Source of the DNA: Candidatus Eiseniibacteriota bacterium
GTDB taxonomy: Bacteria > Eisenbacteria > RBG-16-71-46 > JAFGJU01
Assembly (NCBI GenBank): GCA_026388185.1
Contig: JAPLKG010000003.1
Span: 22,871 to 86,870, forward strand
Reading direction: 5' to 3'
DNA: 64,000 bases
Made by a program: the position numbers and the translations under genes. Shown here piece after piece: positions 1-33,688 of the stretch (position 1 is the first letter of the stretch; each line of letters begins with the position of its first letter). The notes beneath the pieces are model-generated. The model did no database searches. It was not told the origin of the DNA and saw only the letters and a program-made list of their open reading frames with translations.

Positions 1-136
1 ACATCCAAGCGCCAGTATGCTGGGGGCACGCATGGTTGAGGTGATAGTTTCTTCTACAAATGGGGCAGATATGATACCGATCGTATTCCTTAATTGCCCC
101 ACCGCATGCGGGGCATATCCTGGCTCCCACACTGCA

Positions 137-1279
137 TCACCTCGAGGCAATCCAAGCCTCTCCCACGGTATTTCCTTTACTAAACAAGACTCGAATCAAA
201 TGATTTGGAGGGATATGCAGAGATCTGAGAGAATATCCGTCTTCAAGTTCTTCTGTATACTTATCTGGAACGACTGCCAATGCCCCACAGGCAGGACAGC
301 AAGATCTCAGGAACTTCCCAAGCAGGCATGGCTGGATTGTGTGAGAGCCACCACATCCACGACAAACGACGGAGTACACTATCTGTTTGTCGTGTCTAAC
401 TTCTACCTCAGAGCATCCGAGGGCGGCTCGAAGCCTATTCTTGATCGAAAGAACATCATCGTCTAGGAGAGACTCTAGAAGGACTTTCGACTTGTCTGGC
501 GGAGGAACATGAGCAGGGCAATTTTCTTTTCTTGGCACTTCCCAGGTCAGGAATGCCCCGTTTTCTCCATCGAACCAGAAGAACACACTACTCCGGGCGG
601 AAGGACCTGAGTGCTTCAGATGAAGGATCTTAATGCACTCTTGAGCTGCAATGCCTCCCGCTATTGCGCCCGACGTAATGACCATGGGGATCTTGGGCTC
701 ATCTGGAAGCATTCCTATCTTTGAGCAGCTGTGTCTTTCCCATAGTTGCTGATACTCCCTTTTGGTCCAGCTGCATTCAATACATGCTCCGGATGGTGTG
801 GCAACGAATACACTGCTGACCAGACCACCTATCCCCGTATCAACTAGAGGCGTACCGTGTAGCCGACAGTACCTATTCACCCATAGTCGTGCCTCCAGAT
901 TATCTACAGTCAAAACGACACAGTCAAAGGAACTATATTCGAGGCTACCGAAATCATAGACGACATCGCGGTTCCAGCCTCTGGTTGTGATCCCTGGGGC
1001 AATCTCCTTGGCACGCCTGGCGGCTGTCTCCGATTTGGACTTGCCAATGTCCTCGGCCCGAAACAAAACACATCTGTTCAGATTCACTTCCTCAACCACA
1101 TCGCTGTCCAGAACGCTGATTTCTCCTACACCTGTAAGAGCAAGATTCTTGATCACCTCGTTGCCTGTAGTTCCCGCACCAACAACGAGGACACGACCTC
1201 CAGAGACGGCTTCCTGACGCCATCCTTTTATCATCTTCTGTCTTGTATACCTATTCGACATGAGCCTGATGTTCCTCAC
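137..1279 (-). CDS. E1-like adenylyltransferase of the ThiF/MoeB/HesA family (ubiquitin-activating-like), with a C-terminal Cys-rich zinc-ribbon-like extension
   Basis: The Rossmann nucleotide motif VLVVGAGTTGNEVIKNLALTGVGEISVLDSD...NLNRC is diagnostic of ThiF/MoeB/E1. CxxC pairs (CIEC, CRGC, CPAC) follow the adenylation domain. It is the last gene of the Ubl-E2-JAB-E1 operon and overlaps the JAB gene by about 28 nt. Confidence 0.85.
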   Translation of the reverse strand: MRNIRLMSNRYTRQKMIKGWRQEAVSGGRVLVVGAGTTGNEVIKNLALTGVGEISVLDSDVVEEVNLNRCVLFRAEDIGKSKSETAARRAKEIAPGITTRGWNRDVVYDFGSLEYSSFDCVVLTVDNLEARLWVNRYCRLHGTPLVDTGIGGLVSSVFVATPSGACIECSWTKREYQQLWERHSCSKIGMLPDEPKIPMVITSGAIAGGIAAQECIKILHLKHSGPSARSSVFFWFDGENGAFLTWEVPRKENCPAHVPPPDKSKVLLESLLDDDVLSIKNRLRAALGCSEVEVRHDKQIVYSVVCRGCGGSHTIQPCLLGKFLRSCCPACGALAVVPDKYTEELEDGYSLRSLHIPPNHLIRVLFSKGNTVGEAWIASR

Positions 1280-2516
1280 TGACTATGACTTGATACTGAT
1301 GTGTATCCAGAATGGCTCTTTCTCGGTGGGACCAAACTCTAAACCTTAGCTCTTGTGTTGCCAATGCGTTAACGGACGGCGAAGCAATCAGAAAGTAGTC
1401 ACCGCAATATTCCTCAAGAGCACCCAATTCGGGTGTGGGCGAGTCAAAAAACCATCGCTTGCGGCTTTTGGTGAGAGCAGCGGTCGTTTTGGCATTGCAA
1501 TATACCCCGATCATCTGTAGACCTTTTCCGGGGTGTCCCGACGGTAAGGACGCCTCAGAGTGCCGAGACAGTGTGTTCGAAGACTGCGCGGCAAATCCTC
1601 TAATGTATTTTCGGTACTCTTCAATCCTTTCCAACCCTAAGGCCAGGGAATCCACTAGATTTATTAGGCTGCAGCCCGCAAGATGATCAGTATACCCAAA
1701 GAGCAGCCCACCACTTTGAGAGGAATGCATTTCCTGCCACAGCTTCTTGTTGACACGCACAGGAACAATCACCATTGGCATAGGGAAATTGAGTCCGGTC
1801 GGCCCGATTTTAAGCAGGTTATGCAACCGCGAGCTCGCTTGCGCTATCTCCTGTCCGAGGTCTCTTCCCAGCCGTCTCGCAAGTGCCTCGTCGATTTCGG
1901 GGCGTTTTTCCACAAGAATGACATTACCCCTTGCTACTCTCACCTGTGTGCCTTCGTTGTTCCACCCAAAGAAACCAATCCATTCTAAGTCTGACTCGAA
2001 GCCTTGCGACCTGACTCGACTCGGATCGACTACAGCTGCGACCTGATATTGCTCGGGATGATAGTCAGAGAAGTTCTTTGTGTCGGTCCCGGAGAAGAAT
2101 ATGCCCAGTTTCGGATGCGAATGATAATACCCTACAAGGATCGTGCCCTCTCTTAGCCGAACCGCCTCAACGTCTCTGAAGCTCTCGGGAACCATTCTCA
2201 CGTGGGTTGGAGTGGAGACGTAGAGAGCACGAATCGCTCTTTCGACGTAGGTAATCCGTACCCCACTATCGGCATCCATGGCAGGAAAACCCAAGAGATA
2301 CCCACCGACCTCATGGTGCATTTCTCCTGAGGCATGATAATACATTTCTCGCAACGCACCTTTTTGGATGAGAAGCAGCGGTAGGTCTTCACGTGGGAGC
2401 AAGTCGGAGGCTCGTACGAATCGTCGCTCATCATATCTTGTGACTTTGCCAACCCTCACAGCCTGATCATCATCCTCGCGACCTGTCAATCCAAGCACGT
2501 AAGCGAGCCATATCAA
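1251..2516 (-). CDS. JAB/MPN+ (JAMM) metallopeptidase, deubiquitinase-like, with a roughly 250 aa C-terminal extension
   Basis: The JAMM signature HSHPKLGIFFSGTDT (H-x-H-x7-S-x2-D) is present, with an upstream Glu in HASGEMHHEVGGYLLG. A second degenerate GGLLFGY segment lies downstream. The listed start overlaps the E2 gene, so the true start may be a downstream GTG or ATG. Confidence 0.8.
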   Translation of the reverse strand: MIWLAYVLGLTGREDDDQAVRVGKVTRYDERRFVRASDLLPREDLPLLLIQKGALREMYYHASGEMHHEVGGYLLGFPAMDADSGVRITYVERAIRALYVSTPTHVRMVPESFRDVEAVRLREGTILVGYYHSHPKLGIFFSGTDTKNFSDYHPEQYQVAAVVDPSRVRSQGFESDLEWIGFFGWNNEGTQVRVARGNVILVEKRPEIDEALARRLGRDLGQEIAQASSRLHNLLKIGPTGLNFPMPMVIVPVRVNKKLWQEMHSSQSGGLLFGYTDHLAGCSLINLVDSLALGLERIEEYRKYIRGFAAQSSNTLSRHSEASLPSGHPGKGLQMIGVYCNAKTTAALTKSRKRWFFDSPTPELGALEEYCGDYFLIASPSVNALATQELRFRVWSHRERAILDTHQYQVIVSEEHQAHVE

Positions 2517-3015
2517 TAGGCCTTATGTAACGTGAAAGGTTTCCGCGATTTCTCTTCCACCACTCCATCGCTCCAGGATTCGCAGGAGAGTTGGCGTCTA
2601 TCTTCCACATACTACCTTCTTCTTGATTGTATTGAAGATACTCAATGATGCCGCGGATCCAGTCCGCAAGAGCCAGATCCGGCTGAGGGGTGCCACCCGA
2701 CCCCCAACACAAACGCCCGTCGGGCCAAATGTGTGGGTGAAAAGGAATTGGGGAGCGAAATCTCAAGCCAGGCACAGCGGACCATGGGTACCCTGATGCA
2801 ATCTCAGCCGCGACCAAAAATGTGTCACCAATGGCTGAAGAGCCGAGAGATGGATTGCCGATGAGACTCTGTATTCCCTTGATGGTCAGTTCGAATCGGC
2901 TGAAGTCTAAGCTCTTCCGCTCAACTTCAAATCGAAGGGGAAGGATGGAGTCTGCATCCAAGATACTTTTGATCTTCAATAGGTGTCGAATTTCTGTATT
3001 AAACCTCTCATCCAT
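2470..3015 (-). CDS. E2-like ubiquitin-conjugating enzyme homolog (UBC fold)
   Basis: The motif FHPHIWPDGRLCWG resembles the eukaryotic/prokaryotic E2 HPN...C active-site region, with the Cys 10 residues after HP. It is about 180 aa and sits between the Ubl and JAB genes. Confidence 0.65.
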   Translation of the reverse strand: MDERFNTEIRHLLKIKSILDADSILPLRFEVERKSLDFSRFELTIKGIQSLIGNPSLGSSAIGDTFLVAAEIASGYPWSAVPGLRFRSPIPFHPHIWPDGRLCWGSGGTPQPDLALADWIRGIIEYLQYNQEEGSMWKIDANSPANPGAMEWWKRNRGNLSRYIRPIDMARLRAWIDRSRG

Positions 3016-3086
3016 AAGCAGCCCCTTTGAACAATCAAGGTTATTCTCTGTCCGCGGATCTATTCGGACAACTACTCATCACAGGG

Positions 3087-3335
3087 CTAGCCCCCAACCT
3101 CCATTCTGGCTAGGGTTAGCTTGTCTCCGCTTTGCACCAATTTGTCCAGCGTTGCATCCCCACTGATTGGCTTACCATCTGAACCCAGCAATTTGTATGA
3201 ACCCTCTGCTGGCAACCCCAGTTGAGGGGCCACCAACGTACATACCTGCTGCGCATTGTCACCCGGAAATATTTCCACTTCCGCAGAAGCTGTACCGCCA
3301 GCCCTAACTATGGTTACCTTCTTGCCCTCTGCCAT
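3087..3335 (-). CDS. Ubiquitin-like beta-grasp protein ending in a native C-terminal Gly-Gly
   Basis: The 82 aa protein ends ...LTLARMEVGG followed directly by a stop codon. A strong Shine-Dalgarno (caagaGGAGGcagaaATG) precedes the start. It is the first gene of the operon. Confidence 0.75.
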   Translation of the reverse strand: MAEGKKVTIVRAGGTASAEVEIFPGDNAQQVCTLVAPQLGLPAEGSYKLLGSDGKPISGDATLDKLVQSGDKLTLARMEVGG

Positions 3336-3898
3336 TTCTGCCTCCTCTTGTACGATTTCATGTTATTGAACGCCAAGACTCCATCTCCGCGCCCTTCAAA
3401 CTCCAGGGAAAGGCAAAATAGTAAAGCCCCATCAGAACCGATGAGACCTAGTCCATTTTATGAAGACGCGCGAATCATCCAGGACCAACAAAGCGTTCGT
3501 GCCTCCACTTATGTTCTTCTCACCAAAACATCAGTTGCCTTCGATTTATGTAGCACAAATTGTATCACCAAAGTACCTACCGTGCAAGCAGAAACATCTG
3601 GTGGCGCAGCGGCCGCTCATTCCACGAATAGTCAAGACCCAGTAGACGCTCTTCTCACAGTTAGGGAAATCTGAACCCGAGGACTTATCGAAACCTGGGT
3701 CATGCGAGTTTGCCGGCTGCCCCCCACAAGTGACCCGGCCTTCCAGTCAACCGGCTTCTTTCTCACAACAGATTCGCGTCCACCCGCGGATACATTTCGT
3801 GTCTCGCGGATGGAAAGAAGGCCGCCACAGAATTGGGCGGACCCTTACAGAGGCCCTCCACCCTCAAGCTGTAGATAGAGGAGCACTCCGCGGCGTCC

Positions 3899-6307
3899 TC
3901 ACTTCGGTGGGTTTGTAATGACCTTCACCGGCTTTTTGGCATCCTCATGTGGCCACGGCTCAAGCTCTTGAATGTGCCTGCCAAGTTCGGGATAGGAATC
4001 CAATCTCGGCACATTTCGCATGGTTACTTGGCCGAGGGAGATATCGTGAAATCGAGACGCCAAAATTTCTATGCTGCGGATCCCATCAAATGGCATGGCA
4101 TTGTAGAATACCCTGAGTACATTTTGGTCGATGCTCGAGATTGGTCCGAAAACTCGATTGAGGAAATTAACGCCGTGGTAAACCAGTTCCGTTCGTCGGC
4201 GCTTGCTTTCAGGGTCGCTCCGAACCATCCTTTTCATCAGTACCTTTCGTCTTTCTTCGTCCTGCTCTGCATGAAGCTTTTCCCTACGGTCACCCCCAAA
4301 GAAATCCAACTCAATAATTGGTCCATTTATCCTGGACAAAAAGTCGCGCCCCTTCGATTCGACTCTCAGGTGGTTGAGAGGTTTAGTAGAAGCAAATACC
4401 CAGACGCAGGGTTCGATACGGTATGTGGTCCCTTCCGATGCGAAAGAGCCGTCCCATATCGGGCCCAAAAGAAGACCCATAGCTGTGTGGCTCTCAATCT
4501 GGGCATCTATTTCATCCACAAAAACGAGAACGCGGGCCCGTGTACGATTCTGAACAGACATTATCTGTTTAAGCGAGTTCATTAGATCCTGATTAGAGGC
4601 CATCTGGGCGACCGAGAAACTGAGATGTTGAAAATCAAAATGCTGGGCTAGACACTTCGCCAGAGTGCTTTTCCCCCATCCCGGTTCCGCGAGAAGAAGG
4701 CAATTAAAGGGGTACCGTGGATCTCGTTCATTTCCATACGCCTGCAGCCGGGTTATCAATTTGTTTATCTCAGATCGCTTATCTCCACCGGGACAGATGT
4801 AATCCTTGAGCGTTCCGTGAGCGCGCCAGAGATGAATCTGCTTTTCCCCGCCTACCGTAACAACCCCTTGGCCAATCGATGAACGATTCCACTCGTGCCA
4901 GCTCGCCAGATAAGTGAGCCGGTGAGACAGTCTCTGGCGGGGCCCGACCACCGCTGGAGGCCAGGGTGGCCTGTAGATCGCTTGGTCGAAGGGTCCAGTT
5001 AGATTAGAGGGCTTCTTTTCCAACCAAGCCTTCGTACAGCTGTCAGTCCAAAGGTACGCGTTTCGGAGCGCCCAAGAGCACGCACTGCTCATAGAGTTCC
5101 GCAGAGGGACAAACATCTGGTCCCAGTATACAAGCGAAGAAAAGAAAACTGTGGAGCGTCCAACGCAGATAGGTTTCTTTTCACCTGGCGCGCTGGCGAT
5201 GTTGACGAGATAAGCGTCATCTTTCTCGCGGCTCCGATTAGAGTGCCTACCCCGGACCCTTTTTGTGCCTGTAGTGCTCGTCGCAGCAATCACTGTATCA
5301 TCCTCGAACAAGAGGGCAGCATTCTCCGGCTTTACTCGAACAGAGTGGATTGTCTTAGTGTGGAGATACTTCTTCAGCCCAAGGAGATCACCCAGGACTT
5401 CCAAAGCTGCATGCCCTAGGACGGTCGGTCCGTGGCGCCAGACGCGTACCCCGTATGTATACTCCAGCAACTGTTCATCGGTAAACGTCAGCCGCGGTTT
5501 CTTCCTCGCTTTCTTCAGTTCGTCCATCCACGTTGCGGACTCTAGCTTGCTCCGAATGTACCATTTAGCCTTCGGAAAGGCCCTATGGAGCCGTTTGACC
5601 AGCTCATTGTCGATCACTCCATAGCCGTGATCGACCGCAACAATCGCGTCAACCTCAGTTTTGGGAATGGATTTCTTGATCTCACCCACGATGCCGTAGT
5701 TCTTGTACTGATTGTCGAGATCCAGTTTCCAATCGAAACGATATTGAAGACGAGGTTGATCACTGCCAAACCCTTCATAAAGACGGACCAAGTGGTTGGA
5801 AGACGTATTTGTTGCGGCTTTGGGGCAGTTTGTCTTAACTAGATTGAACATCGACCGCTGGTAGCAGCACTCAGTTTGAGTCCTGAGATGCGGACACCAC
5901 CTCTTGGCCTTGCTATTCCAGTGCGGAGTCGTGAGACCGGATAAACGGTACGGTGTGAGCCCTATGCTCACATCTTTCTTGTCACACAGCAGACACATAA
6001 GGAGATTGCTATCACTTGGGTTCCATGCCGTAAGCAAAAGCAGTTCGCATTTCTCCACCATTGAAGGAACCATGGATTTCCCCGCTGAGACAGTGCGATG
6101 TTGAAGACCCGGACCCCGTAGGGTGCGCCAAACACTAGCTGCTCCGCAAAAACTTATGATCCGGCAATCGGCGTTTGGCAGATTGCTAATGTAGTGTTCC
6201 TTGCCAACGTTGTAGCTGTGGTAGATGTCTCCGCGCGACATCAGCCAGTTCTCATCGATGAAGGAATCACCAACAATGAGCACAACGCGCTTCTGGTTGG
6301 ATGGCAT
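3899..6307 (-). CDS. Fusion protein: N-terminal PfkB/RfaE-domain-I-like carbohydrate-kinase fold plus C-terminal P-loop NTPase (STAND/AAA+-like)
   Basis: The N-terminus has VVLIVGDSFIDENW, CGAASVW and AIVAVDHGYG, which resemble the HldE/PfkB motifs VGDvmLDrYW, GGAANVA and SDYaKG. The C-terminal half has Walker A LLAEPGWGKSTLAKCL and Walker B RVLVFVDEID. The ORF track starts at a GTG at 6367, but a GGAGG Shine-Dalgarno precedes the in-frame ATG about 60 nt downstream (MPSNQKR...), so the start is called near 6307. Confidence 0.6.
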   Translation of the reverse strand: MPSNQKRVVLIVGDSFIDENWLMSRGDIYHSYNVGKEHYISNLPNADCRIISFCGAASVWRTLRGPGLQHRTVSAGKSMVPSMVEKCELLLLTAWNPSDSNLLMCLLCDKKDVSIGLTPYRLSGLTTPHWNSKAKRWCPHLRTQTECCYQRSMFNLVKTNCPKAATNTSSNHLVRLYEGFGSDQPRLQYRFDWKLDLDNQYKNYGIVGEIKKSIPKTEVDAIVAVDHGYGVIDNELVKRLHRAFPKAKWYIRSKLESATWMDELKKARKKPRLTFTDEQLLEYTYGVRVWRHGPTVLGHAALEVLGDLLGLKKYLHTKTIHSVRVKPENAALLFEDDTVIAATSTTGTKRVRGRHSNRSREKDDAYLVNIASAPGEKKPICVGRSTVFFSSLVYWDQMFVPLRNSMSSACSWALRNAYLWTDSCTKAWLEKKPSNLTGPFDQAIYRPPWPPAVVGPRQRLSHRLTYLASWHEWNRSSIGQGVVTVGGEKQIHLWRAHGTLKDYICPGGDKRSEINKLITRLQAYGNERDPRYPFNCLLLAEPGWGKSTLAKCLAQHFDFQHLSFSVAQMASNQDLMNSLKQIMSVQNRTRARVLVFVDEIDAQIESHTAMGLLLGPIWDGSFASEGTTYRIEPCVWVFASTKPLNHLRVESKGRDFLSRINGPIIELDFFGGDRREKLHAEQDEERRKVLMKRMVRSDPESKRRRTELVYHGVNFLNRVFGPISSIDQNVLRVFYNAMPFDGIRSIEILASRFHDISLGQVTMRNVPRLDSYPELGRHIQELEPWPHEDAKKPVKVITNPPK

Positions 6308-6370
6308 GACTTCCTCCTGAATAATTACGAGCCCTCTATCTACACCAGCGGGAGGCGTCTTGCGCACGCA

Positions 6371-7690
6371 TCAAAGATCAGACCTTTTCCTTGCCCACCG
6401 CACAATGGGTCCGAGGACCAGTCTGGCGACAAACTTGGTAACCGTACTGCTGGAAACAAACCCTGCCAAAGATGGGGAAACAAAATAATAGAGTCTGACT
6501 GCGAATGCACCGAGGCGGGAGTGTAATAACACTTCATCCCGAAATCTACTTAGTGTCGCCACCTCTGATGCCAGCGGAGAGTCAAACGCAGCAGTTGCGA
6601 TGAAACAGCGCGAACCTACACCTTCCACCTTGTACAGGTCCATACCCGGGGGCTCGAACTTCAGCACTATGAGTATTGTTGTTTCCCCAGCCAATCTTCT
6701 GGCCTCATCGAGAACTGCCAGGTCATCCGGAGCGAAGGAGCCGACTAGCTTAGTTCGGAAGTTGCCTTTGTACATGGCTGCTGGTTTTCCTTCTCTCAGA
6801 ATCGTGACGCGATCCTTCCTGTATTGGCTCTCGAGTTCGAGTATGCCTTCCCCAACTTCCTTGATTCTGGAGTTTCTGGCAACCTCTGTCTCCGCTGTGC
6901 CAATCGATTCCAACAGTCGTACGGTATTCCTGCGCGACACTTCATTCGTGTCGTGACTGAGACAAGTTTTGAGATCCTGAACAGCCTTGTCTTTCTCCCC
7001 CATGAGCAGCCACAGGTAGCCTCGATTGAAGTAAGTCGGAGGGTGATCAGGAGCCAGAGCAATGGCCCTCTCAAATGCGTCTAGTGCGAGCTCGTAGTAC
7101 TCTCCAGCTTTCGCCTCCTGCCCGGATTTGGTAAGCTCTGCCCCCATCGTCTTGTACACGTTTCCTAGACTGTTGAGTGGATGCGGCATCTTTGGCGATG
7201 AGGACACTGCCCGTCTTGCCCACTCCAATGCCAAATCGTACTTCCCTTTGTGGGTGTATATGATGGCGAGGGAATTCATCGCATCAGCAGCGTCGGGCGA
7301 TTCTTCAACACCATATTCGAGAGCCCAAGCCGCGAGATCCTCCTCACCGAGTCTTGCAAGCTGCATTCCCATATGCACCAACATGCGAGCAAGAGGCCAG
7401 TCGTCAAAATCGGCGGGATGCTTGCACTTCGCTCTTTGCAGAATAGAAGTGGCGCGACTAACAAGCTCAAGCCCCGGAATTCGGCGAAGAACGTCAAGTT
7501 TATCCTCGTCGCTCGGAAATTCCTTGAGGATCTTGCTCCGAAAGCGGGCTTTCTCCGCTTTCGAGAGGTTTGTGAAGTGCTGCACTTCCTTCTTCAGTGC
7601 GCGTTCCATATCAATCAGCTGAATTGTCGACAGACCTTGCGTTTGTTGGTGAATGCTGTCGATTTCGTCCATCTTGGATCCTCCATTCAC
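6371..7690 (-). CDS. TPR-repeat protein with a conserved C-terminal CFIATAAF...LSRFRD module
   Basis: Multiple 34-aa TPR-like repeats are present (AIIYTHKGKYDLALEWARRAV, LGNVYKTMG, YYELALDAFERAIALAPDHPPTYFNRGYLWLLMGEKDKAV). Its stop is 3 nt from the start of the downstream kinase/NTPase gene, implying translational coupling. Confidence 0.7.
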   Translation of the reverse strand: MNGGSKMDEIDSIHQQTQGLSTIQLIDMERALKKEVQHFTNLSKAEKARFRSKILKEFPSDEDKLDVLRRIPGLELVSRATSILQRAKCKHPADFDDWPLARMLVHMGMQLARLGEEDLAAWALEYGVEESPDAADAMNSLAIIYTHKGKYDLALEWARRAVSSSPKMPHPLNSLGNVYKTMGAELTKSGQEAKAGEYYELALDAFERAIALAPDHPPTYFNRGYLWLLMGEKDKAVQDLKTCLSHDTNEVSRRNTVRLLESIGTAETEVARNSRIKEVGEGILELESQYRKDRVTILREGKPAAMYKGNFRTKLVGSFAPDDLAVLDEARRLAGETTILIVLKFEPPGMDLYKVEGVGSRCFIATAAFDSPLASEVATLSRFRDEVLLHSRLGAFAVRLYYFVSPSLAGFVSSSTVTKFVARLVLGPIVRWARKRSDL

Positions 7691-8253
7691 GGAAAGGCCA
7701 GCAGCTGCGCTGGCCAGACTCAGGTGAAGGTTACATCAGAATAACGTCCGCGTCCTACCGGTGATGGAAATCTAGGGAGTTCTAGCTAAACGTATCAAAT
7801 CTGCCGGCTTGATAAATCAAAGCGTTAGTATATCACTAAAATACTGCCAGTGCAAGGGCGAAATCTCAGTGGTGTTCCATTAACTGGTGCTGATTGAGGT
7901 CTGAAGGCGACCAGTCAGGGCGGAAATTGATCACGTCGCTGCTGCCAACTTGGAGACATCCAAGCCGATGGACCCAGAGAGTGCAGTCATTTGTTTGCAA
8001 CCACGACATGAGCTCCAGATTATCACACATGTGACATGACACGACAGTGCCCAAACGAAACGTCACCTCTATGCATTGCTCTTGCTAACATCCTCCTAAC
8101 AAAACATCCCAAAACACCCCGAAAAACGAGAAAACACCAGAAAACGTGAGACCGCACAACTCTTTTCTGTTGTTACAGCTACGTCCCTGATGTTCTCTCT
8201 TGTTGTGACATCACAACGTTCTCATAACCCAAAGGTCGCTGGTTCACCTCGCT

Positions 8254-8577
8254 TCACGGCTTTCCTGTAATCTTCTGAAGCGTGGAGTCCCAGAGGTAAC
8301 CGGCGATCAAGGCGTGGCGCCAATCCGCCAACATCTTGCCGCCAACAGCTACAATCACCAGGGCAACGGCCAGCGAGAAGACAGAAAGTTTCGCGTAGGG
8401 CCCAACGTGCGGCCACACTGCTCGCAGCACCTTCGCCATTCTTCGCGTTAGCGGCGGCTTCTTGGGTTGCAGGCTCGAGCCCGGTGTCGTCGGGCCATAG
8501 GTTTTCTTGAATTCTTCGCTGACGGACTTTGCCGGCACAGATGTTTTGACCCCCGCTGCCAGCTGTAGTAAATTCAT
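8254..8577 (-). pseudogene. Truncated N-terminal fragment of an ABC exporter (MsbA-like transmembrane-domain N-terminus)
   Basis: The translation ...MAKVLRAVWPHVGPYAKLSVFSLAVALVIVAVGGKMLADWRHALIAGYLW resembles the start of type-I ABC exporter transmembrane domains (compare MsbA FRRLWPYI.PYK). The reading frame stops after 107 aa, far short of a full exporter, and it is divergent from the ABC-F gene. Confidence 0.4.
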
Positions 8578-8582: not shown

Positions 8583-10880
8583 ATGGCACTAGTAACCACG
8601 CATGACCTCGGGAAATCTTTCGGCCTGGTAGATGTTTTCGCCGGTTTGTCTCTGAGTGTCCCTCGCGGGGCGCGCATTGCCGTGGTCGGGCCGAACGGAA
8701 TCGGGAAAACGAGCCTGCTGCGCGTCATCGCAGGGAAGGAACCTCCCTCCGCGGGTACGGTCCACCGCTCTCGGGGCCTCACGATCGGCTACTTGCCACA
8801 GGAATCTGTTTTCGAATCGGCTAACACTCTCTGGGACGAATGCCTGATTCCTCTGGCCCACTTGCTCGCGCAACAGAAGGAGCTGACCCGTCTCGAGGCC
8901 GAGATGGTCGCTGGCGGGAACGATGCCGCTGTCGGGAACGCCGGCGGGGCCGGGGGCATAGCCGAGACTGGGAACGCTGCTGGCGAGACCGCTGGGGCTG
9001 GCGATACTGCCGTAGCTGGAAACACCGGCCGCAGCGTTGAAGACACCCTGGAGCGCTACGGCGCGCTGCAGGCTCGCTTCGAAGAGGCCGGGGGGTACAC
9101 TTACGAGACGCGCATCCGACAGGTGCTCACGGGTCTGGGCTTCTCCCCCGACGAATACGCCCTACCCCTGACGTGCCTTTCGGGCGGACAGCGCACCCGG
9201 GCCCTTCTGGCGCGTTTATTGATAGAGAAGCCGGGTCTATTGATTCTCGACGAGCCGACCAATCATCTCGACGTCTCTGCCGTTGAATGGCTGGAAAGTT
9301 ACATCAGAGACTGGGACGGCGCCGTCCTCATCGTCTCACACGACCGCTATCTCCTCGACAAGGTCTGCAACAACGTCTGGGAAATGAGCAGGGCCGGGGT
9401 CGAGGCCTATCGCGGCAACTATAGCCACTACCTGCGCCAGCGTCAGGAGCGCTGGGATCGGCGTTCGACGGAGTTCGAGGCCGAGAAGGCTCGCCTCGAG
9501 AAAGAAATGGACTACGTCAAGCGGAACATCGCCGCGCAAAACGTAGCTCAAGCCAGGGGGCGTCTCAAACGCATGAGCCGCCAGATTCAGGCCATCGAAC
9601 AGATTGGACTGGACGCCATGCGGGGTAGGAAGTGGCTCAACATAAGTGAGGACGTGCAGACAACTACGGGTGTGATGACTGCGGAGGAGGCAGAACGACG
9701 GATCAAGTCCCTGCGCAATCCAATCCATCGCCCGAAAGAACTCAAGTTCAGACTTGCGGCCGGTCAGCGCGGCGGGAACATCGTACTTCGCACCCGTGAC
9801 CTGGCTGTCGGTTATCCCGGCAATCATCTTTTCACCGTCCCCGACATCGACCTCCAGCGCCTCGGGTGTGTCGCTCTCATCGGTCCCAACGGCTCCGGCA
9901 AGACCACGTTTCTTAAAGTCATCCTCGGCAAGCTTCCCCCTCTCAGCGGTGAGGCGCAAGTCGGGGCCAGTCTTGACGTCGGCTACTTCGCTCAGGCTCA
10001 CGAGGGTCTCAATCTGGACAACACACTTATGCAGGAGATCGAGTCGGTCGCTCCCCGCATGCTGGTTGACGCGATCCGAGGCTACCTTGCCCGCTACCTC
10101 TTCACCGGTGAGGACGTCTTCAAGAAAGTCCAAGTCCTCTCGGGTGGCGAGCGCGGACGCCTGGCGCTCGCGAAGCTTGCCTTGAGCAACGCCAACCTCT
10201 TGCTCCTCGACGAGCCGACCAATCACCTCGACATCCCTTCCCAGGAAGTTCTCCAAAACGTGCTGGTCGACTTCGACGGGACAATCATCCTGGTTTCGCA
10301 CGATCGCTTCCTGATCGACGCTCTGGCGACTCAGGTCTGGGAGATCGATAGAGATCACGCCGTCCTCAAGATTTTCGAGGGAACCTACAGCGAGTATCGC
10401 GCGAGTGGAGGGTCTCCCGGAGTTTCAGGTACGGCGGCGCGCGCGCCGGCAGTGGGCAGTTCTGCGGCGCAAGGCTCGGCGGCGGGTGGTTCTGCGATGC
10501 GCGACTCGATCACGCGCGGTCCTGCCCTCCAAGGTCCGACGTCGCAGGGCCCCGCGGCGCCAAGTTCAGCGGCACCACGCTCGGCGGCGGACGACTCTCA
10601 TTTACAGAAAGGTGACGCTTTCCGCAAGGCTCGCGCTGCCAAGAACCGCGAGATCGCCGAGGAGCGCCGTGCCCTCGCTCGGGAAAGGCGCCGCAAGGCT
10701 CGCATTGCAGAACTCGAAGGCCGCATTGCGATTCTACAAGAAGAAGTTACTCGTCTCGGAGGAAGTCTCGCCGATCCCCCGTCCGACCGGGCCGAGATCC
10801 TACGTTTGGGCGAAGAGTACATGCGCACAGAGAGCGAGATGGAGGCGCTCATCGCCGAGTGGGAGAACTTACAGGGGTGA
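8583..10880 (+). CDS. ABC-F family ATPase (two ABC nucleotide-binding domains, no transmembrane domain; EttA/Uup-like) with Gly/Ala-rich insertions and a coiled-coil tail
   Basis: There are two Walker A motifs (GPNGIGKTS, GPNGSGKTT), two ABC signatures (LSGGQRTRALLARLL, LSGGERGRLALAKL) and two Walker B motifs (LLILDEPTNHLD, LLLLDEPTNHLD). Confidence 0.9.
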   Translation: MALVTTHDLGKSFGLVDVFAGLSLSVPRGARIAVVGPNGIGKTSLLRVIAGKEPPSAGTVHRSRGLTIGYLPQESVFESANTLWDECLIPLAHLLAQQKELTRLEAEMVAGGNDAAVGNAGGAGGIAETGNAAGETAGAGDTAVAGNTGRSVEDTLERYGALQARFEEAGGYTYETRIRQVLTGLGFSPDEYALPLTCLSGGQRTRALLARLLIEKPGLLILDEPTNHLDVSAVEWLESYIRDWDGAVLIVSHDRYLLDKVCNNVWEMSRAGVEAYRGNYSHYLRQRQERWDRRSTEFEAEKARLEKEMDYVKRNIAAQNVAQARGRLKRMSRQIQAIEQIGLDAMRGRKWLNISEDVQTTTGVMTAEEAERRIKSLRNPIHRPKELKFRLAAGQRGGNIVLRTRDLAVGYPGNHLFTVPDIDLQRLGCVALIGPNGSGKTTFLKVILGKLPPLSGEAQVGASLDVGYFAQAHEGLNLDNTLMQEIESVAPRMLVDAIRGYLARYLFTGEDVFKKVQVLSGGERGRLALAKLALSNANLLLLDEPTNHLDIPSQEVLQNVLVDFDGTIILVSHDRFLIDALATQVWEIDRDHAVLKIFEGTYSEYRASGGSPGVSGTAARAPAVGSSAAQGSAAGGSAMRDSITRGPALQGPTSQGPAAPSSAAPRSAADDSHLQKGDAFRKARAAKNREIAEERRALARERRRKARIAELEGRIAILQEEVTRLGGSLADPPSDRAEILRLGEEYMRTESEMEALIAEWENLQG

Positions 10881-23378: not shown

Positions 23379-25502
23379 ATGAAACACATTGTTGCGATTC
23401 TCGTGACTCTAGGTATCCTGCTCTTGGGAATCGGCGTCAGCGCGCACGATCAAGAACTGACTGCCGTGACCAGAGCGCAAGCCGAAGAAGGCGCCTTCCC
23501 CGCGCAAAACACGAGTGACCTCACTCGGGGACAAACCCGAGCGGAGCCGAGCGCCGAGGATCTCGTGTTCATGGAGATTCCCGTCGTCTTCGCAGCGTCA
23601 AAGTTCGAGCAGCCGAGCACCGAGGCACCCGCGACCGTCTCCATCATCACCGCGGACGACATCCAGCGCTACGGTTACCGGACGCTCGACGAAGCACTCC
23701 AAGGAGTCACAGGTCTCTACGTGACGTATGACGACAATTACAGGTACCTCGGCGTGCGAGGCTATAGCATTCCGGGCGACTACAATTCGAGAGTACTCCT
23801 CCTGGTGGACGGCATGGCATCCAACGACGACATATACGGAAGTGCAACCTTCGGCACCGTTTTCGGCGTCGACATGGACCAGGTGAAGCAAATCGAGATT
23901 ATCAAGGGTCCGGGCTCGGCGTTGTACGGAACCAACGCCCTGTTCGCCGTCATCAACGTTGTGACCAAGGACGCGAAAGACTCGGACGGCCTCAGGGTCT
24001 CCGCAGAATATGGAAGCTACGATTCTCGAAAGGGCCTCATGAGCTACGGAAAGAGACACGGCGATCTCGACTTTGTCGTCGCGGGTTCATACGCGAACGC
24101 GGAGGGACAGGACCGCTATTTCCCAGAGTACGACGGTTACGTGGACGAGGCAGGAATAGTCTACGACGGAACGTTCAGGAATGGTGACTGGGACAGGTCC
24201 CCGAGCATCTGGGGCAAATTGTCCTACAAGCAATTCGCCCTCCGTGGCTGGCACAAAACGCGCGACAAGGGAATCCCCACTGCAGCTTATTGGACCGTTT
24301 TCAATGACAACAGAACAAACAACACCGACGAGAGCGAATTCCTGGAACTGAGGTACGCGCCGACACTGGATGAGACGAAAGACCTGTTGGCAAGAGTGTA
24401 CTACAATCGCTATCGCTACTACGGCGACTGGATGCTGTTGTACGAAGGAGAATCGGACTACTACGAAGAAATGGGCAAGGACGTGGCCAAAGGAGACTGG
24501 ATTGGTTCGGAGCTCCAGCTCAACTGGAAGACTTCTGCCCGTAACCGGCTGACTGCGGGCGGAGAGGCCCAATATCACAGTGTCGCTCAGAAGTACTGGG
24601 ACGAAGGCCTTCTCGGCAGCGAGTATCGACACCAGTACTTGGACTACAACCAGCAGTTCGATGTCTGGTCCCTCTATGCCCAGGACATCTACAAACTCTC
24701 GAGTCTGTCTTTTGTTCTCGGTGCCAGGTATGACAACTATCCGACTTTTGGTGGAACCACCAATCCGAGAGTAGGCTGCATATATACTCCCTTTGACAAG
24801 ACCAACATCAAGCTACTCTACGGAACGGCCTTCCGCGCTCCCTCGCCCTACGAGCTTTACTATCACGACGGCTACTATCTTATGGAACCCAATGAGAGTC
24901 TCACTCCCGAGAGACTGAAGACTACAGAGCTCGTGCTCGAGCAAGGAATCGCGCGAAATGTGAAAGCCCTGTTCTCCTTGTATCACACGGACCTTACCAA
25001 CTTGATCTATCAGGTAGTAACTGCAGACACGGGCATTGAAGGAGATCCGTTGCTACAGTTCCGGAACGTCGGATGCGTCCAGGCCTCTGGTCTTGAGTTC
25101 ACCCTGGACGGAACATTCTCGGGAGTTCTTACCCGGTTTGGCTACAGTTATCAGGAAACACGGGACCAGCACGGGAAAGAACAACTCGTCAATTCGCCCA
25201 ACAGTTCAGGTAATTTCAGCATCAGCGTTCCCATTCTCTCCGGGAACGAGTACGTGAGTGCCGAAGTGCGCTACGTGGGAAAGCGGTTCACCACCAGCCG
25301 TGAAGAGTTGGATCCCTACGTCTCCACCAATCTCATTCTGTTCATGAAGGACTTGCTGCCGCACATCGAGATTACGGCAAAGGTGAATAACGTATTCGAC
25401 GTTTCTTATGAAGATCCATGCAGCACAGAGTATTTCCAGACCAGAATTCCGCAAGATGGAAGAAGTTTCTTCTTGAAATTGACGTACAGGAGCCAACGGT
25501 GA
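23379..25502 (+). CDS. TonB-dependent outer-membrane receptor
   Basis: A signal peptide is followed by a plug domain (VSIITADDIQRYGYRTLDEALQGVTGLYV) and a long beta-barrel region. Confidence 0.8.
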   Translation: MKHIVAILVTLGILLLGIGVSAHDQELTAVTRAQAEEGAFPAQNTSDLTRGQTRAEPSAEDLVFMEIPVVFAASKFEQPSTEAPATVSIITADDIQRYGYRTLDEALQGVTGLYVTYDDNYRYLGVRGYSIPGDYNSRVLLLVDGMASNDDIYGSATFGTVFGVDMDQVKQIEIIKGPGSALYGTNALFAVINVVTKDAKDSDGLRVSAEYGSYDSRKGLMSYGKRHGDLDFVVAGSYANAEGQDRYFPEYDGYVDEAGIVYDGTFRNGDWDRSPSIWGKLSYKQFALRGWHKTRDKGIPTAAYWTVFNDNRTNNTDESEFLELRYAPTLDETKDLLARVYYNRYRYYGDWMLLYEGESDYYEEMGKDVAKGDWIGSELQLNWKTSARNRLTAGGEAQYHSVAQKYWDEGLLGSEYRHQYLDYNQQFDVWSLYAQDIYKLSSLSFVLGARYDNYPTFGGTTNPRVGCIYTPFDKTNIKLLYGTAFRAPSPYELYYHDGYYLMEPNESLTPERLKTTELVLEQGIARNVKALFSLYHTDLTNLIYQVVTADTGIEGDPLLQFRNVGCVQASGLEFTLDGTFSGVLTRFGYSYQETRDQHGKEQLVNSPNSSGNFSISVPILSGNEYVSAEVRYVGKRFTTSREELDPYVSTNLILFMKDLLPHIEITAKVNNVFDVSYEDPCSTEYFQTRIPQDGRSFFLKLTYRSQR

Positions 25503-26431
25503 GAGCTGCGGTACTCATAACGCTCTGTCTGGCTTTGAGTGTCTTTGGTTGTTGCCTGGCAGAGCAATGCCACGCGGCAGGCCGACTCGCGGTCTCGGTC
25601 ATTTTTTCTTCCGACATCGAGGCCTACACGCAGGCGTGGAACGGATTCCGAAGCTATTTCGACGAACAAGAGGTGTCGTTGGCCGTGTCCACGTACAACT
25701 TGAAGGATCAAGAACCTGCAATGGTCTGTTCAGAGATAGAGGCGAGAGGATCCGACGTGGTTTTCACGCTGGGAACGCAGGCGTCAAGACTGGCGCGAGA
25801 AAGAATAAAGAACATCCCCGTCATATTCTGCATGGTGTTCAATCCAGGCGAGTTCGCCGGCACAAACAGCACCGGCGTCTCGATGGAGATCCCCATCGAG
25901 GCAAGATTGCAGGGGATCAAGAAAATACTCCCTCACGCCAAGAATGTGGCAGCCGTCTATTCGACAGAGACGGCAGAGGCATACAGGCAGGTCTTCTCGA
26001 AGGGCAGCCAATTGGGTCTGACCATAATCGGAAAGCAGATTGATTCTGAGAGACAGCTTCCCGACGCCATTAGAGAACTGGACTACAGGATGGATTGTTT
26101 TCTGATGCTCGCCGATTCTCAACTATATTCCCCCGCATCGGTAAAGCATCTGCTGCTCGAGAGTCTGAGACAGGGATTCCCCGTAGTAGGACTCTCGTCT
26201 CATTACACCCAGGCAGGAGCACTCTTTTCGTTCGATTGCGACTACGGCGACCTCGGTCGCCAGGCAGCAGAAATCGCGTCGAGGATCACGAACGGCGAAA
26301 CGCCGGGAGCGATTCCTCCCCTGGCACCGAGAAAGATCAGGCTTTCAATAAACATGCTCGCCGCCGACAGGTTGGGAATCGAGATTTCCTCTGAGACGGC
26401 GAAACGGGCGAGTGAGGTGTTCGGTAGATGA
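25499..26431 (+). CDS. Periplasmic substrate-binding protein (ABC_sub_bind / Bmp-like sensory SBP)
   Basis: A GTG start overlaps the TonB-receptor stop (GTGA). GGAG lies 7 nt upstream. A signal peptide (AAVLITLCLALSVFGCC) is followed by a type-I periplasmic-binding fold. It is immediately followed by a histidine kinase. Confidence 0.65.
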   Translation: MRAAVLITLCLALSVFGCCLAEQCHAAGRLAVSVIFSSDIEAYTQAWNGFRSYFDEQEVSLAVSTYNLKDQEPAMVCSEIEARGSDVVFTLGTQASRLARERIKNIPVIFCMVFNPGEFAGTNSTGVSMEIPIEARLQGIKKILPHAKNVAAVYSTETAEAYRQVFSKGSQLGLTIIGKQIDSERQLPDAIRELDYRMDCFLMLADSQLYSPASVKHLLLESLRQGFPVVGLSSHYTQAGALFSFDCDYGDLGRQAAEIASRITNGETPGAIPPLAPRKIRLSINMLAADRLGIEISSETAKRASEVFGR

Positions 26432-31179: not shown

Positions 31180-32437
31180 TGCCCTTCTCTGCGTATATGG
31201 GGTGCACCAGGGCCTTGAGTACAGGTAGTTTTCTGGCAAAGAGTAGACCGCCACAGATGCAACAGAGCCCGGATACCAGCAGAGTCTTCGGGGCGCCTAT
31301 CTTGTCGGCCATACTTCCTGCCCACAGGCTGCCGAACGGCACGGTGCCCATGAACGCCATCGTGTAAAGACTCATAACACGTCCCCGCTTATCGTCATCC
31401 ACGATGGTTTGCAGGGTTGTGTTGCTCGCCGCCATCATCACCATCATCCCAAAACCGGTCACCAACATTAATGCCAGGGAAAGCCAAAGGAAATGAGACA
31501 AAGAGAATCCGATAAGACCCACGCCAAAGATGCCCGCGGCCACTGGAATCGTTCTTCCTAACCTGAGGATTTGTCTGCGCGACGCGAGATAGAACGCGCC
31601 CGTCAACGCACCCGCACCCGATGCCGCGACGAGAAAGCCGAAGATGTTTGAGCCGCCGTGAAGAATCTGCCTTGCAAAAACCGGCATCAATATTTGATAA
31701 GGCATTCCCATTAGGCTCACCAGAGCGAGAAGCAAAATGATCGACCTGATGGGATCAAAGCCGAATGCGTAGGAAAAACCGTCCTTCAGACCCCGTAGAA
31801 CGTGGGTGTTCTTCGCCTCGGTTTTTCGCGGGGTGACTCTCATCGCCAGAAGAGATCCGATCACTGCAATGTAACTCAGGCCGTTGAGGAGAAAGCACAC
31901 ACCCTCTCCCACGACGGCAATGAGTATGCCGGCGACTGAAGGACCCACGAGCCGCGCACCGTTGAACAATGAGGAATTGAGTGCGATCGCATTCCCGAGG
32001 TCTTCCTTTTTTCTGTCGACCATCTCCACGACGAACGTCTGGCGTGCAGGCATGTCAAAGGCATTCACGAGACCCAGGAATATGCTCAAGACCACTATCT
32101 CCCAGACAGTGATCGCATTCGTTAGAACAAGGACCGCGAGAACGAAAGCCTGTACCATGGCGAGAACCTGCGTGATGACAAGAATCCGGCGGCAGTTCCA
32201 TCTGTCGGCCAGCACTCCGGCCACGGGGGCAAGAAGAAAGGTCGGAATTTGCCCCGCAAATCCAACCACACCCAACAGTAGAGCGGAATTGGTGAGGCGG
32301 TACACCAGCCAGCTCAGCGCGATGCGCTGCATCCAGGTTCCGATCAGAGAGATTCCCTGACCTCCGAAAAAGAGTCTGTAGTTCCTGTAACGCAACGCGC
32401 GGAAGACGAGCCTGAGTCCGGTTGTCTCTTTGTGCAT
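31115..32437 (-). CDS. MFS transporter
   Basis: It has twelve predicted transmembrane segments and the motifs GVLADRWNRRRIL and GQIPTFLLAP. The likely start is MHKETTGL. Confidence 0.8.
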   Translation of the reverse strand: MHKETTGLRLVFRALRYRNYRLFFGGQGISLIGTWMQRIALSWLVYRLTNSALLLGVVGFAGQIPTFLLAPVAGVLADRWNCRRILVITQVLAMVQAFVLAVLVLTNAITVWEIVVLSIFLGLVNAFDMPARQTFVVEMVDRKKEDLGNAIALNSSLFNGARLVGPSVAGILIAVVGEGVCFLLNGLSYIAVIGSLLAMRVTPRKTEAKNTHVLRGLKDGFSYAFGFDPIRSIILLLALVSLMGMPYQILMPVFARQILHGGSNIFGFLVAASGAGALTGAFYLASRRQILRLGRTIPVAAGIFGVGLIGFSLSHFLWLSLALMLVTGFGMMVMMAASNTTLQTIVDDDKRGRVMSLYTMAFMGTVPFGSLWAGSMADKIGAPKTLLVSGLCCICGGLLFARKLPVLKALVHPIYAEKGIIPEVAYGIQTTDALTKPPEA

Positions 32438-32604
32438 GATCGTGTCTCCGAACCAAAAACGAGGGAGAATCGCTTCTCCCTCGTTTGTCACTGCCTTTGC
32501 GCAGTGTAACATGGCTGGTAACTTACTGCAAAGGATGGATCGTTAAGTTGGGACTATCTCAGAACGGCACGTGCAGCTTCGCAACATGCCTACCAGTGTA
32601 GTCA

Positions 32605-32871
32605 CTAGTATCTTCGATATTCCGTTCTCTCTCTGCTCTTGGGCGGACGAGCTTCGTCCACCTTCAGGGTACGGCCCTTGAATTCATAAGCATCCAGCGC
32701 CTCTTTTGCCTTTTCGGCCTCAGCGGTGCTGGACATTTCGACGAATCCAAAACCCTTACCTTCAATGACGTTGACTTGCTTAACCACGCCATGGGCTGCA
32801 AAGAGCTCTTCCAACTGCTCGTTGCTCACGTCATAGCCAAGATTTCCTACGTAAAGCCTACTAACTTGCAT
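32605..32871 (-). CDS. RRM-domain RNA-binding protein (glycine-rich RNA-binding protein-like)
   Basis: RNP2 LYVGNL and RNP1 KGFGFVEM are present. The protein is about 88 aa. Confidence 0.85.
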   Translation of the reverse strand: MQVSRLYVGNLGYDVSNEQLEELFAAHGVVKQVNVIEGKGFGFVEMSSTAEAEKAKEALDAYEFKGRTLKVDEARPPKSRERTEYRRY

Positions 32872-33688
32872 TCTAATCTCCTGTTCATCTCATTCAGTTT
32901 CTCTGTCCAAGTAATGTCTCTATCGGAGGTAGAAGCAAGATAGTTGTTCAGACCTCGTTGCGGGAGCATTACTAATCACAAGAGAATCCTAACGAAGAAT
33001 GTGCTTAACAAGAATTAACCGATTGTTTCCACCACCCCTTTCAGCAGTTACCAGCCAATTTGTGACGTGTCTGAAGCCATGCGGCCTGACACGAGTCTCT
33101 TCGCAACTTTCCAGACCCCGGTAGACGGGCTGCCCTGAGCCTTCTACGGGTTCTGACATGGTAAGTTGTTTTACATCTGTTCAGATATTCCATTGTCTCG
33201 ACGTAGAGAGGGCGGAGTGAGTAAACTCTAGCAGCAAGCAACTCTTGGGCAATTACGTGCAGGCTATCGTCGTCAGAGCGGCGAACTCAAGCTGTCCTCT
33301 TCAATCACATCGCTGGCTCAGAAACGCATGCTCGAACTTGCGAGCGAGCCTCAATTCATTTGCTATATTAAGTATAGCTGATAATCGGTCACTTGTCAAT
33401 CCGCAAAGATGGAATTATTTGATGTGGTGCCCGACTGCCGTTACTTCTTGCGGGTAACCTCTTGCATCAGTTCGGGTTGGATCTCTTGAATCTCAAGGAG
33501 CCTTTGCCATTGATGCCAGAGAAGGTGATCCGGTTTTTCGTGTAGATGGCGTATCTCCAGCTCCGCCTTGAGGTTCACGCGTTCGTCATCTCGCTCGCCA
33601 CTAATACGTGAGGCCCGCGATCCTCCCTCTTCTCCCTGTAGTCTCTGCTCTTCGGAAGACGCGCCTCAGCCACCTGCCCCGTGCCGTT

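Follow-up and report, generated by a model that had tools for sequence, protein, structure and literature searches.

What occupies the left end of this stretch of DNA, and do the genes found there work together or simply lie side by side? The stretch (referred to here as the window) comprises 64,000 nucleotides (nt) of contig JAPLKG010000003.1 from "Candidatus Eiseniibacteriota" (assembly GCA_026388185.1), and its first 8 kb encode a ubiquitin-like (Ubl) conjugation system, an NTPase, and a tetratricopeptide repeat (TPR) protein. A preliminary description, made from the letters of the window, correctly named these three components and took them for one horizontally acquired, mobile defense island whose parts may function jointly and which had inserted into, and truncated, the gene of an ABC exporter. 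Our results point to a different arrangement. The left end of the window probably lies inside an accessory region of ~13 kb that is foreign in composition, is placed downstream of an intact gene for a small membrane protein, and is a mosaic of independent modules, one of them a five-gene Ubl cassette. The region is a compositional island; the reading of a decayed exporter is wrong, and the reading of a joint system is unsupported.

From 137 to 7690, every long open reading frame (ORF) is on the minus strand, as had been described. The order of transcription is TPR gene, ATPase gene, a 563-nt gap, and then the genes for Ubl, E2, JAB, and E1, followed by a zinc-finger gene that runs over the left edge of the window. 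The DNA beyond that edge comes from locus L001, which was found by an exact look-up of the Ubl protein and whose DNA is the same in two Logan assemblies; L001 equals the window over 10,232 identical nt and then extends 6.9 kb leftward of it. Gene coordinates use the starts given by the gene caller.

6371-7672, minus strand: TPR protein of 433 amino acids, matching Pfam TPR families and carrying a CFI-box-CTERM domain at amino acids 356-424 (window 6371-6640)
3899-6307, minus strand: orphan protein of 802 amino acids, with a ribokinase-fold N terminus (~450 amino acids) and a C-terminal AAA+ ATPase
3336-3898, no strand: gap of 563 nt between the ATPase and Ubl genes, with no credible ORF
3087-3335, minus strand: Ubl of 82 amino acids, with a C terminus that is exactly Gly-Gly
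2470-3015, minus strand: E2 of 181 amino acids, with a canonical UBC fold and no Pfam match for the window copy
1251-2498, minus strand: JAB/MPN metallopeptidase of 415 amino acids (Pfam Prok-JAB, 1.7e-12)
137-1261 (longest ORF to 1279), minus strand: E1 of 374 amino acids, with a ThiF-type adenylation domain (Pfam ThiF, 5.6e-47)
1-130, minus strand: first 43 codons of the gene for a zinc-finger protein of 337 amino acids (whole gene at L001 10103-11116), a putative membrane-anchored E3

Composition sets these genes apart from their surroundings. The five large minus-strand genes (137-7690) were compared with the 29 other window genes of at least 200 amino acids, and the ranges of GC content at third codon positions (GC3) were disjoint, 0.49-0.57 versus 0.69±0.04 (range, 0.625-0.783; Mann-Whitney p=3.6e-6). 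The distance in codon usage to the host set was 0.17-0.23 for the five genes versus 0.125±0.026 (p=4e-5), and the tetranucleotide L1 distance was 0.29-0.32 versus 0.14-0.20 elsewhere. GC per kb was 0.50-0.52 across positions 1-8000 and mostly 0.54-0.61 in the rest of the window. The lower GC and different codon usage remarked on in the preliminary description were thereby confirmed when GC and codon usage were computed over the whole window, in which the block is statistically distinct. GC3, codon usage, and tetranucleotide content shift jointly and sharply at ~8250. The first two genes to the right, encoding a 107-amino-acid protein and an ABC-F protein, have host-like GC3 (0.68 and 0.71, respectively), which places the change in the noncoding spacer near 8100-8250. 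On the left the block had been described as beginning at 137; the atypical composition in fact runs ~4.8 kb past window position 1. Beyond the window edge in L001, GC3 stays at 0.46-0.57 up to a response regulator gene, and since it returns to 0.655-0.66 only in the permease genes that follow, the atypical region measures ~13 kb, from window position 8253 to ~4.8 kb left of window position 1. The departure from host composition that marks integrative islands is therefore seen in GC3, codon usage, and tetranucleotides alike. With a composition foreign to the host, the region most likely arrived by horizontal transfer, in one event or perhaps several. That it is instead native DNA, with a GC3 lowered by weak expression or relaxed selection, seems improbable to us: the lack of mobility genes and att sites would suit such an origin, as would other patches of the window that dip to GC 0.51-0.53, but three measures of composition shift sharply at ~8250, not one host gene falls in the GC3 range of the island, and the gene families of the region are all rare and scattered (Eisenbacteria, Blastocatellia, Chloroflexota, and Zixibacteria).

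Signs of mobility were sought across the region and its surroundings. No integrase, recombinase, or transposase was present among the genes of L001 1980-15070, which span the ~13 kb; ARAGORN detected no tRNA or tmRNA in the window or in the loci, and Rfam gave no match anywhere in the window or in the loci. Flanking direct repeats or att sites at the region boundaries amounted to short chance matches, and the sole long direct repeat, of 99 nt at 77% identity, is paralogous zinc-finger coding sequence. Of the proposal that the block is a horizontally acquired mobile island, the foreign composition therefore stands, and the mobile part finds no integrase, tRNA, or flanking repeat in ~13 kb, including the DNA beyond window position 1, where the preliminary description had suggested looking for an integrase or a tRNA attachment site. 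The source is a metagenome-assembled genome, and the junction at ~8250 could in principle be a chimera of assembly or binning. However, the junction joining the ABC-F, 107-amino-acid, TPR, and ATPase genes was assembled identically from two sequencing runs (L001/L006 and L007), in addition to its presence inside the 64-kb window, and the left part of the region was likewise assembled from two runs (L001 and L002). Recovery in two independent assemblies makes a chimera unlikely, and we give it next to no credence.

The five genes at the left edge of the window carry the features expected of a Ubl conjugation cassette. In the E1, the motifs GAGTTGNE (residues 28-35), CIEC (160-163), and HSCSK (177-181) are followed by C-terminal CxxC pairs; five loci conserve GAGTTGNE, the zinc-site cysteines, and the cysteine of (H/Y)SC(S/L)K in the crossover region, and the cysteine of HSCSK is the candidate catalytic residue. 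The best PDB matches of the E1 are the eukaryotic proteins UBA1, UBA7, SAE2, and UBA3 (1e-30 to 1e-22, with UBA1 at 1e-30), and MccB, ThiF, and MoeB follow behind the UBA1 group at 1e-15 and weaker, which places the protein with the UBA-type E1s. The E2 has the invariant motif FHPH(93-95)...G100..C103WG, the spacing of which in the family alignment equals that of the eukaryotic HPN...C. Most of its homologs carry Pfam UQ_con, and a profile built from the family hits human UBE2A/Rad6 (1.5e-8). An AlphaFold2 model (pLDDT, 91.4) shows a complete UBC fold, including the C-terminal helices, and the best 50 matches in a Foldseek search of this model against the PDB were all eukaryotic E2s. The window protein thus combines a canonical UBC fold with an HPN-type motif and a catalytic-type cysteine. 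In the JAB protein the JAMM motif is intact (E63; H126-S-H-P-x7-S-x2-D139) and is followed by a C-terminal extension of ~250 amino acids. With the Rpn11-like protein of Caldiarchaeum (6fjv, 1.8e-6) as its best PDB match, it is of the Rpn11/JAMM deubiquitinase type.

The two remaining members are less easily classified. The Ubl family has an invariant di-glycine in 8/8 aligned sequences; most stop there, and two run from a few to ~18 residues further. The best single-sequence PDB match of the window Ubl is Caldiarchaeum ubiquitin, at a weak E value of 0.06. The very low E values of the Ubl profile against PDB poly-ubiquitin are an artifact of summing nine weak repeats and were disregarded. The 337-amino-acid protein encoded after the E1 consists of a zinc finger (CPACGGAIKEYDRYHICPICRRNYHLNHACPQH), one transmembrane helix at amino acids 119-137, and a C-terminal domain of ~190 amino acids. 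The zinc-finger consensus, CxxC-x11-12-CxxC-x4-H-x2-[H/C]-x-C-x2-H, provides eight ligands. Seven of eight copies match Prok-RING_1 below threshold (best, 21.4 bits, for the finger of the 337-amino-acid protein; cutoff, 29.1), and one copy also matches PHD and C1 weakly, again below threshold. Because the RING scores are subthreshold and the ligand spacing is PHD/C1-like, E3 activity is a guess, and we refer to this membrane protein as a putative E3. Proteins of this kind have one or several transmembrane helices, with C-terminal parts that vary between loci.

The order of the genes is conserved in distant relatives. BLAST searches with all window proteins recovered Ubl-E2-JAB-E1 in every locus that holds a member of the E2 family (L013/L017, L015, L016, L018, and L019-L023), and the order extended by a zinc-finger gene was present in L013/L017 (Blastocatellia), L015, L016, L018 (Chloroflexota), L019, L020/L021, and L022. 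The E1 gene is directly followed by the zinc-finger gene wherever a locus reaches far enough for this to be seen; the L013 copy in this position has decayed, with a transposase breaking it up, and two further zinc-finger genes, both intact, are located upstream. The C-terminal parts of the zinc-finger proteins include Fn3 in L018, multi-pass membrane segments in L016/L020/L021, and a CFI-box in L013; no relation was found between the zinc-finger C-terminal domain and the 3-keto-disaccharide-hydrolase protein encoded upstream in L018. The family is also rare. In an exhaustive HMMER search over 1.84 billion representative proteins, the E2 family had 15 matches when the cutoff was E<=1e-30 and 21 when it was E<=1e-10. 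Among 185,579 species genomes, a pattern scan returned two loci (Blastocatellia and Chloroflexota); a metagenome scan returned five, and the viral, phage, and plasmid collections yielded none. The E2/cassette family is scattered over three or more phyla.

Individual loci differ in detail. In L013 (413-1132) and L015 (7330-8016), a membrane protein of 228-239 amino acids with a Gly/Ala-rich C-terminal helix is encoded upstream of the Ubl; the two copies are 59% identical, and the window has no counterpart. Just upstream of the intact Ubl gene of L016, at 1229-1679, are two partial Ubl-like ORFs that may be remnants of a Ubl duplication. L023 (313-2697) holds a more distant cassette in the order Ubl-E2-JAB-E1, with an E2 that is 32% identical and an ORF of ~190 codons at the Ubl position.

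Traces of another cassette were present left of the window. After the gene for the 337-amino-acid protein, L001 continues leftward with a copy of the E2, a 45-amino-acid ORF, a 283-amino-acid membrane protein, two unknown ORFs, a response regulator, and Liv-type ABC permeases.

L001 11202-12717, ~1.0-2.5 kb left of window position 1: second cassette, decayed

The second E2 (187 amino acids) is intact, has kept its catalytic cysteine, and is 52% identical to the first. The 45-amino-acid ORF is what remains of the C terminus of an E1 (44% identity with E1 residues 336-380), and the 283-amino-acid protein is a multi-pass membrane protein of six helices with an N-terminal zinc finger that is 58% identical to that of the 337-amino-acid protein. 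A clean deletion of ~2.3 kb appears to have taken the JAB gene and E1 residues 1-335. Since the E2s of the two cassettes diverge as much as E2s do between phyla, the second cassette is no recent duplication. Its E2 and zinc-finger protein may be decaying, or they may be served by the E1 and Ubl of the first cassette.

Do the ATPase and TPR genes belong to the same system? As a fusion, the 802-amino-acid protein has no counterpart among the families of Pfam, NCBIfam, or PADLOC, and its N-terminal half has no sequence-level PfkB match. Its C-terminal half scores 1.2e-7 against Pfam AAA, with Walker A (GWGKST, 543-548) and Walker B (VFVDEID, 595-601) motifs intact. In the AlphaFold2 model (pLDDT, 82.5; pTM, 0.83), Foldseek matched the N-terminal fold to HldA (4e8y, 6e-10) and then to human ribokinase and other ribokinases and matched the C-terminal fold to RuvB, NtrC1, and Vps4. 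The predicted folds of its halves and the intact Walker motifs are thus those of ribokinase/PfkB kinases and classical AAA+ ATPases; unlike the PfkB kinases, it reads VGRST where their GAGD anion-hole/catalytic motif would be expected (as judged by reading the sequence, not by superposition). This substitution suggests ligand binding rather than kinase activity, and the protein may be a ligand-sensing NTPase. About 22 proteins of this family were detected, in variable contexts and never on viral contigs or plasmids. The neighbors of the homologs in five independent contigs (L008, L009, L011, L024, and L025) are mutually unrelated: housekeeping genes in L008, SLFN, RelA-SpoT, SNF2, and Fic genes in L009, and sulfate reduction genes together with an Ogr_Delta gene in L011, from a Zixibacteria metagenome-assembled genome. 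In L025 (205-5501), the homolog lies by a PDDEXK_2 gene and a 47-amino-acid duplicate of the mnmE 3' end that adjoins the full mnmE, an arrangement suggestive of insertion where mnmE ends, with duplication of the target.

None of these five contigs has a Ub-system or TPR gene beside the ATPase homolog, and none of the cassette loci (L013/L017, L015, L016, L018, and L019-L023) has an ATPase or TPR gene beside the cassette. ATPase homologs that occur without the cassette, and cassette loci that lack both the ATPase and the TPR gene, speak for a mosaic of modules in this block. Under this arrangement, one module would be the TPR protein with its CFI-box C-terminal domain (NCBIfam NF041770, 71.5 bits; cutoff, 40), a second would be the stand-alone ribokinase-fold/AAA+ fusion protein, and the third would be the five-gene Ubl conjugation cassette. 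The gap at 3336-3898 is a module boundary; promoters and terminators were predicted in numbers equal to the shuffled expectation, with none above chance in this gap. The CFI-box domain that the TPR protein has in common with a cassette-linked zinc-finger protein of L013 is the sole hint of a connection; it makes a loose functional link conceivable, and the TPR protein and the cassette may be connected in this way.

What of the exporter into which the block was said to have inserted? The features that follow the block on the right are as follows.

7691-8253, no strand: noncoding spacer of 563 nt without a credible gene, in which the composition changes
8254-8577, minus strand: small membrane protein of 107 amino acids, an intact member of a conserved family (GC3, 0.68)
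8583-10880, plus strand: ABC-F protein of 765 amino acids, divergent from the 107-amino-acid gene; right-hand flank

The spacer agrees with the noncoding stretch of roughly 550 bp that had been described there. Over its full length it is not rich in A and C (A+C, 55%); an AC-rich core of ~55 nt (84% A+C, with GTTTT repeats on the minus strand) is confined to 8091-8145. The 107-amino-acid ORF, which had been taken for the N-terminal start of an ABC exporter, has no Pfam or NCBIfam match at E<=0.01 and hence no similarity to ABC_membrane. It has eight homologs of 102-116 amino acids that are 42-51% identical to it and whose loci are not syntenic with the window. All nine family members have one invariant C terminus in common, ALIAGYLWDSTLQKITGKP, and, given the length of the homologs, the ORF is full length. 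The neighboring gene encodes a soluble ABC-F protein with two ABC_tran domains, ABC_tran_Xtn, and ABC_tran_CTD and without a membrane domain in Pfam. We therefore reject the 107-amino-acid ORF as an exporter remnant: its homologs are equally short and end alike, and the ABC neighbor is an ABC-F protein. No exporter was truncated here.

These results bear directly on the proposal of one mobile defense island in which TPR protein, NTPase, and Ubl system act jointly and which truncated an ABC exporter on insertion. The atypical composition and common orientation of the genes, the adjoining ABC gene, and the one ATPase homolog that lies among defense-like genes (L009) are what such an island would predict. 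However, the 107-amino-acid ORF is full length relative to eight homologs, has no ABC_membrane signal, and adjoins an intact ABC-F gene; the ATPase and TPR genes are never found together with the cassette in other loci; and mobility genes and att sites were not found. As for defense, PADLOC returned only weak generic matches to the E1 and JAB and was empty for the other four of the six proteins (E2, Ubl, ATPase, and TPR). We consider the proposal very unlikely and favor a mosaic of independent modules.

Among characterized systems, the one closest to the cassette is the operon of Caldiarchaeum subterraneum (Aigarchaeota) and the Asgard archaea, which encodes ubiquitin, an E1-like protein, an E2-like protein, a small RING finger protein, and Rpn11 (Nunoura 2011; Hennell James 2017, PMC5654768; Fuchs 2018, PMC6043591). 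The same five functions, with the zinc-finger protein as a putative E3, are represented in the cassette, where the E2 is likewise a canonical UBC protein (UQ_con) with an HPx...C active site and the E1 resembles eukaryotic UBA1 more closely than it does ThiF or MoeB. CsRpn11 is the nearest solved relative of the JAB protein, and CsUb is the best, though weak, match of the Ubl. The two differ in that the cassette has a bacterial host and the order Ubl-E2-JAB-E1-ZnF (zinc-finger gene), with JAB inside the operon; in that the cassette Ubl ends at the di-glycine in most loci, with no propeptide; and in that the zinc finger is not in a small soluble RING protein but in a membrane protein of 240-526 amino acids with PHD/C1-like ligands.

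Bil (Type I/II, BilABCD) has its four genes in the same order as the first four of the cassette, Ubl-E2-JAB-E1, and resembles it in overall chemistry and in sparse distribution. However, the cassette E2 has no similarity to BilB of Ensifer aridi (BLASTP E value, 1.6; hhalign probability, 0.1%), and it retains two features of eukaryotic E2s that BilB is without, the C-terminal helices and an HPN-like motif. PADLOC gave no match to BilA, BilB, or BilC and only a partial one of the E1 to BilD (1.1e-6), and the cassette has a fifth, zinc-finger gene. On the basis of the PADLOC searches and the comparisons with BilB, the assignment of the cassette to Bil by sequence was rejected. To our knowledge, the bacterial Ubl conjugation pathways that have been studied experimentally are just three, CBASS type II, Bil, and Bub, all of which have divergent E2s and no E3.

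Prokaryotic gene neighborhoods that combine RING fingers with E1, E2, JAB, and Ubl genes were reportedly predicted by Burroughs, Iyer, and Aravind in 2011, in work said to be the source of the Pfam families Prok-RING_1-4. The bacterial versions of Prok-RING occur with transmembrane helices. Like these neighborhoods, the cassette encodes a bacterial zinc finger beside E1, E2, JAB, and Ubl, and Prok-RING_1 is the only recurrent RING-family signal (7/8 fingers); unlike members of Prok-RING_1, the cassette fingers stay at or below 21.4 bits versus the gathering score of 29.1. These neighborhoods are the nearest described class, and the cassette is of a predicted, uncharacterized kind. For bacteria, "some examples of complete operons" are noted by Hennell James et al. 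(PMC5654768), and Grau-Bové et al. (2014) found no such bacterial operons. In the literature searched, we found no experimental study of this bacterial cassette.

A scheme for how the cassette might work can be drawn from the established chemistry of E1/E2/RING cascades and from the reconstituted Caldiarchaeum system (PMC5654768, PMC6043591). The E1 would adenylate the Gly-Gly end of the 82-amino-acid Ubl and bind it as a thioester on the cysteine of HSCSK, and the Ubl would then pass from the E1 to Cys103 of the UBC-type E2. The membrane-anchored zinc-finger protein would act as an E3 adaptor, with its RING/PHD-like finger on the cytoplasmic face and its variable domain beyond the membrane, and would steer conjugation to targets at the membrane. 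The Rpn11-like JAB would reverse or edit the conjugates, and the intact E2 and multi-pass zinc-finger protein of the second cassette could use the E1 and Ubl of the first. Composition, gene content, catalytic motifs, folds, and five-gene order are directly supported; the enzymology, the topology, and the biological role are what we infer from them.

What the conjugation would be for is a separate question. It is possible, though on balance we think it unlikely, that the cassette is a regulatory or quality control pathway rather than an anti-phage one and tags membrane or envelope proteins when the zinc-finger proteins pick up a signal through their extracytoplasmic domains. These zinc-finger partners lie in the membrane and carry Fn3, jelly-roll-like, or multi-pass domains, the flanking genes in L016 and L018 are metabolic, the membrane protein of 228-239 amino acids is conserved upstream in L013 and L015, and no copy of the cassette was found in the viral, phage, and plasmid collections. 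Stress-response roles are moreover considered possible in the literature for the Bub and Type II Bil pathways. Against this, the gene order is that of the anti-phage Bil operons, the very sparse and patchy spread across phyla and the foreign composition are typical of defense or accessory genes, and the cassette of L013 lies by transposases and an Eco57I-type methyltransferase and that of L015 by CHAT and VWA genes.

A bolder version of the scheme is a long shot in our estimation. In it, the cassette would be a complete, membrane-based bacterial E1-E2-E3 machine, in which outward-facing E3 domains (jelly-roll-like, Fn3, or multi-pass) would detect a signal from outside (phage adsorption or envelope damage, for example) and recruit charged E2 to tag targets at the inner face; one E1 and one Ubl would serve two E2/E3 pairs, a minimal network of eukaryotic type. 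If this were so, bacteria would possess working E2s of the canonical UBC kind and working E3 adaptors of the RING/PHD type, and that would touch on the question of an exclusively archaeal origin of the eukaryotic system. In the cassette, a canonical E2 and a UBA1-like E1 go together with an Rpn11-like peptidase and a candidate E3 in the membrane, and the cassette offers a compact, testable model for the use of E3-dependent ubiquitylation in bacteria and a test case for the transfer of a eukaryote-like toolkit between archaea and bacteria.

Several points weigh against the mosaic of foreign modules with a Ubl cassette that we prefer. No close relative with an unoccupied site came to light, the homologs of the 107-amino-acid protein being too distant and not syntenic, so that its insertion is deduced from composition alone, and ~13 kb of DNA hold no integrase, tRNA, att repeat, or transposase. 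The similarity of the Ubl to ubiquitin is statistically weak, with single-copy E values of ~0.04-0.08. The zinc finger falls below the Pfam gathering score of every RING family, and its ligand spacing resembles PHD or C1 more than classical RING. The CFI-box of the TPR protein also ends a 171-amino-acid zinc-finger protein of L013 (2734-3249), with 43% identity over 70 amino acids, which bears on the independence of the modules. Finally, a role in anti-phage defense is plausible by analogy with Bil, and analogy is what it stands on.

Other observations concern the right flank and the remainder of the window. GC of 0.51-0.54 is also seen in the window patches 24000-26000, 32000-34000, and 59000-64000, and ~32.9-33.6 kb is without an ORF of at least 80 amino acids. 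Relative to its eight homologs, the 107-amino-acid protein has lost 8 residues of the first hydrophobic helix and has gained a Pro/Lys-rich insertion of ~20 residues after the shortened first segment, leaving a single clear transmembrane segment. No shared DNA motif was seen by eye downstream of the homologs of its gene. Besides the window, two contigs with a homolog offer some downstream sequence, and in both it is accessory DNA. One of these homologs (L004, 1001-11351) is followed by PHP/SMC_N, HATPase_c_3, AbiTii-TIR, and excisionase-like HTH_17 proteins and a phage integrase, and another (L003, 10001-10614) is followed by the N terminus of an IS5-like transposase, identified by reading the sequence; the DNA downstream of genes of this family may be a recurrent insertion site. 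In the ABC-F protein, the first half is interrupted at approximately residues 110-150 by an insertion of low complexity, rich in Gly, Ala, and Asn, and a long Ala/Ser/Pro-rich linker precedes the C-terminal coiled coil.

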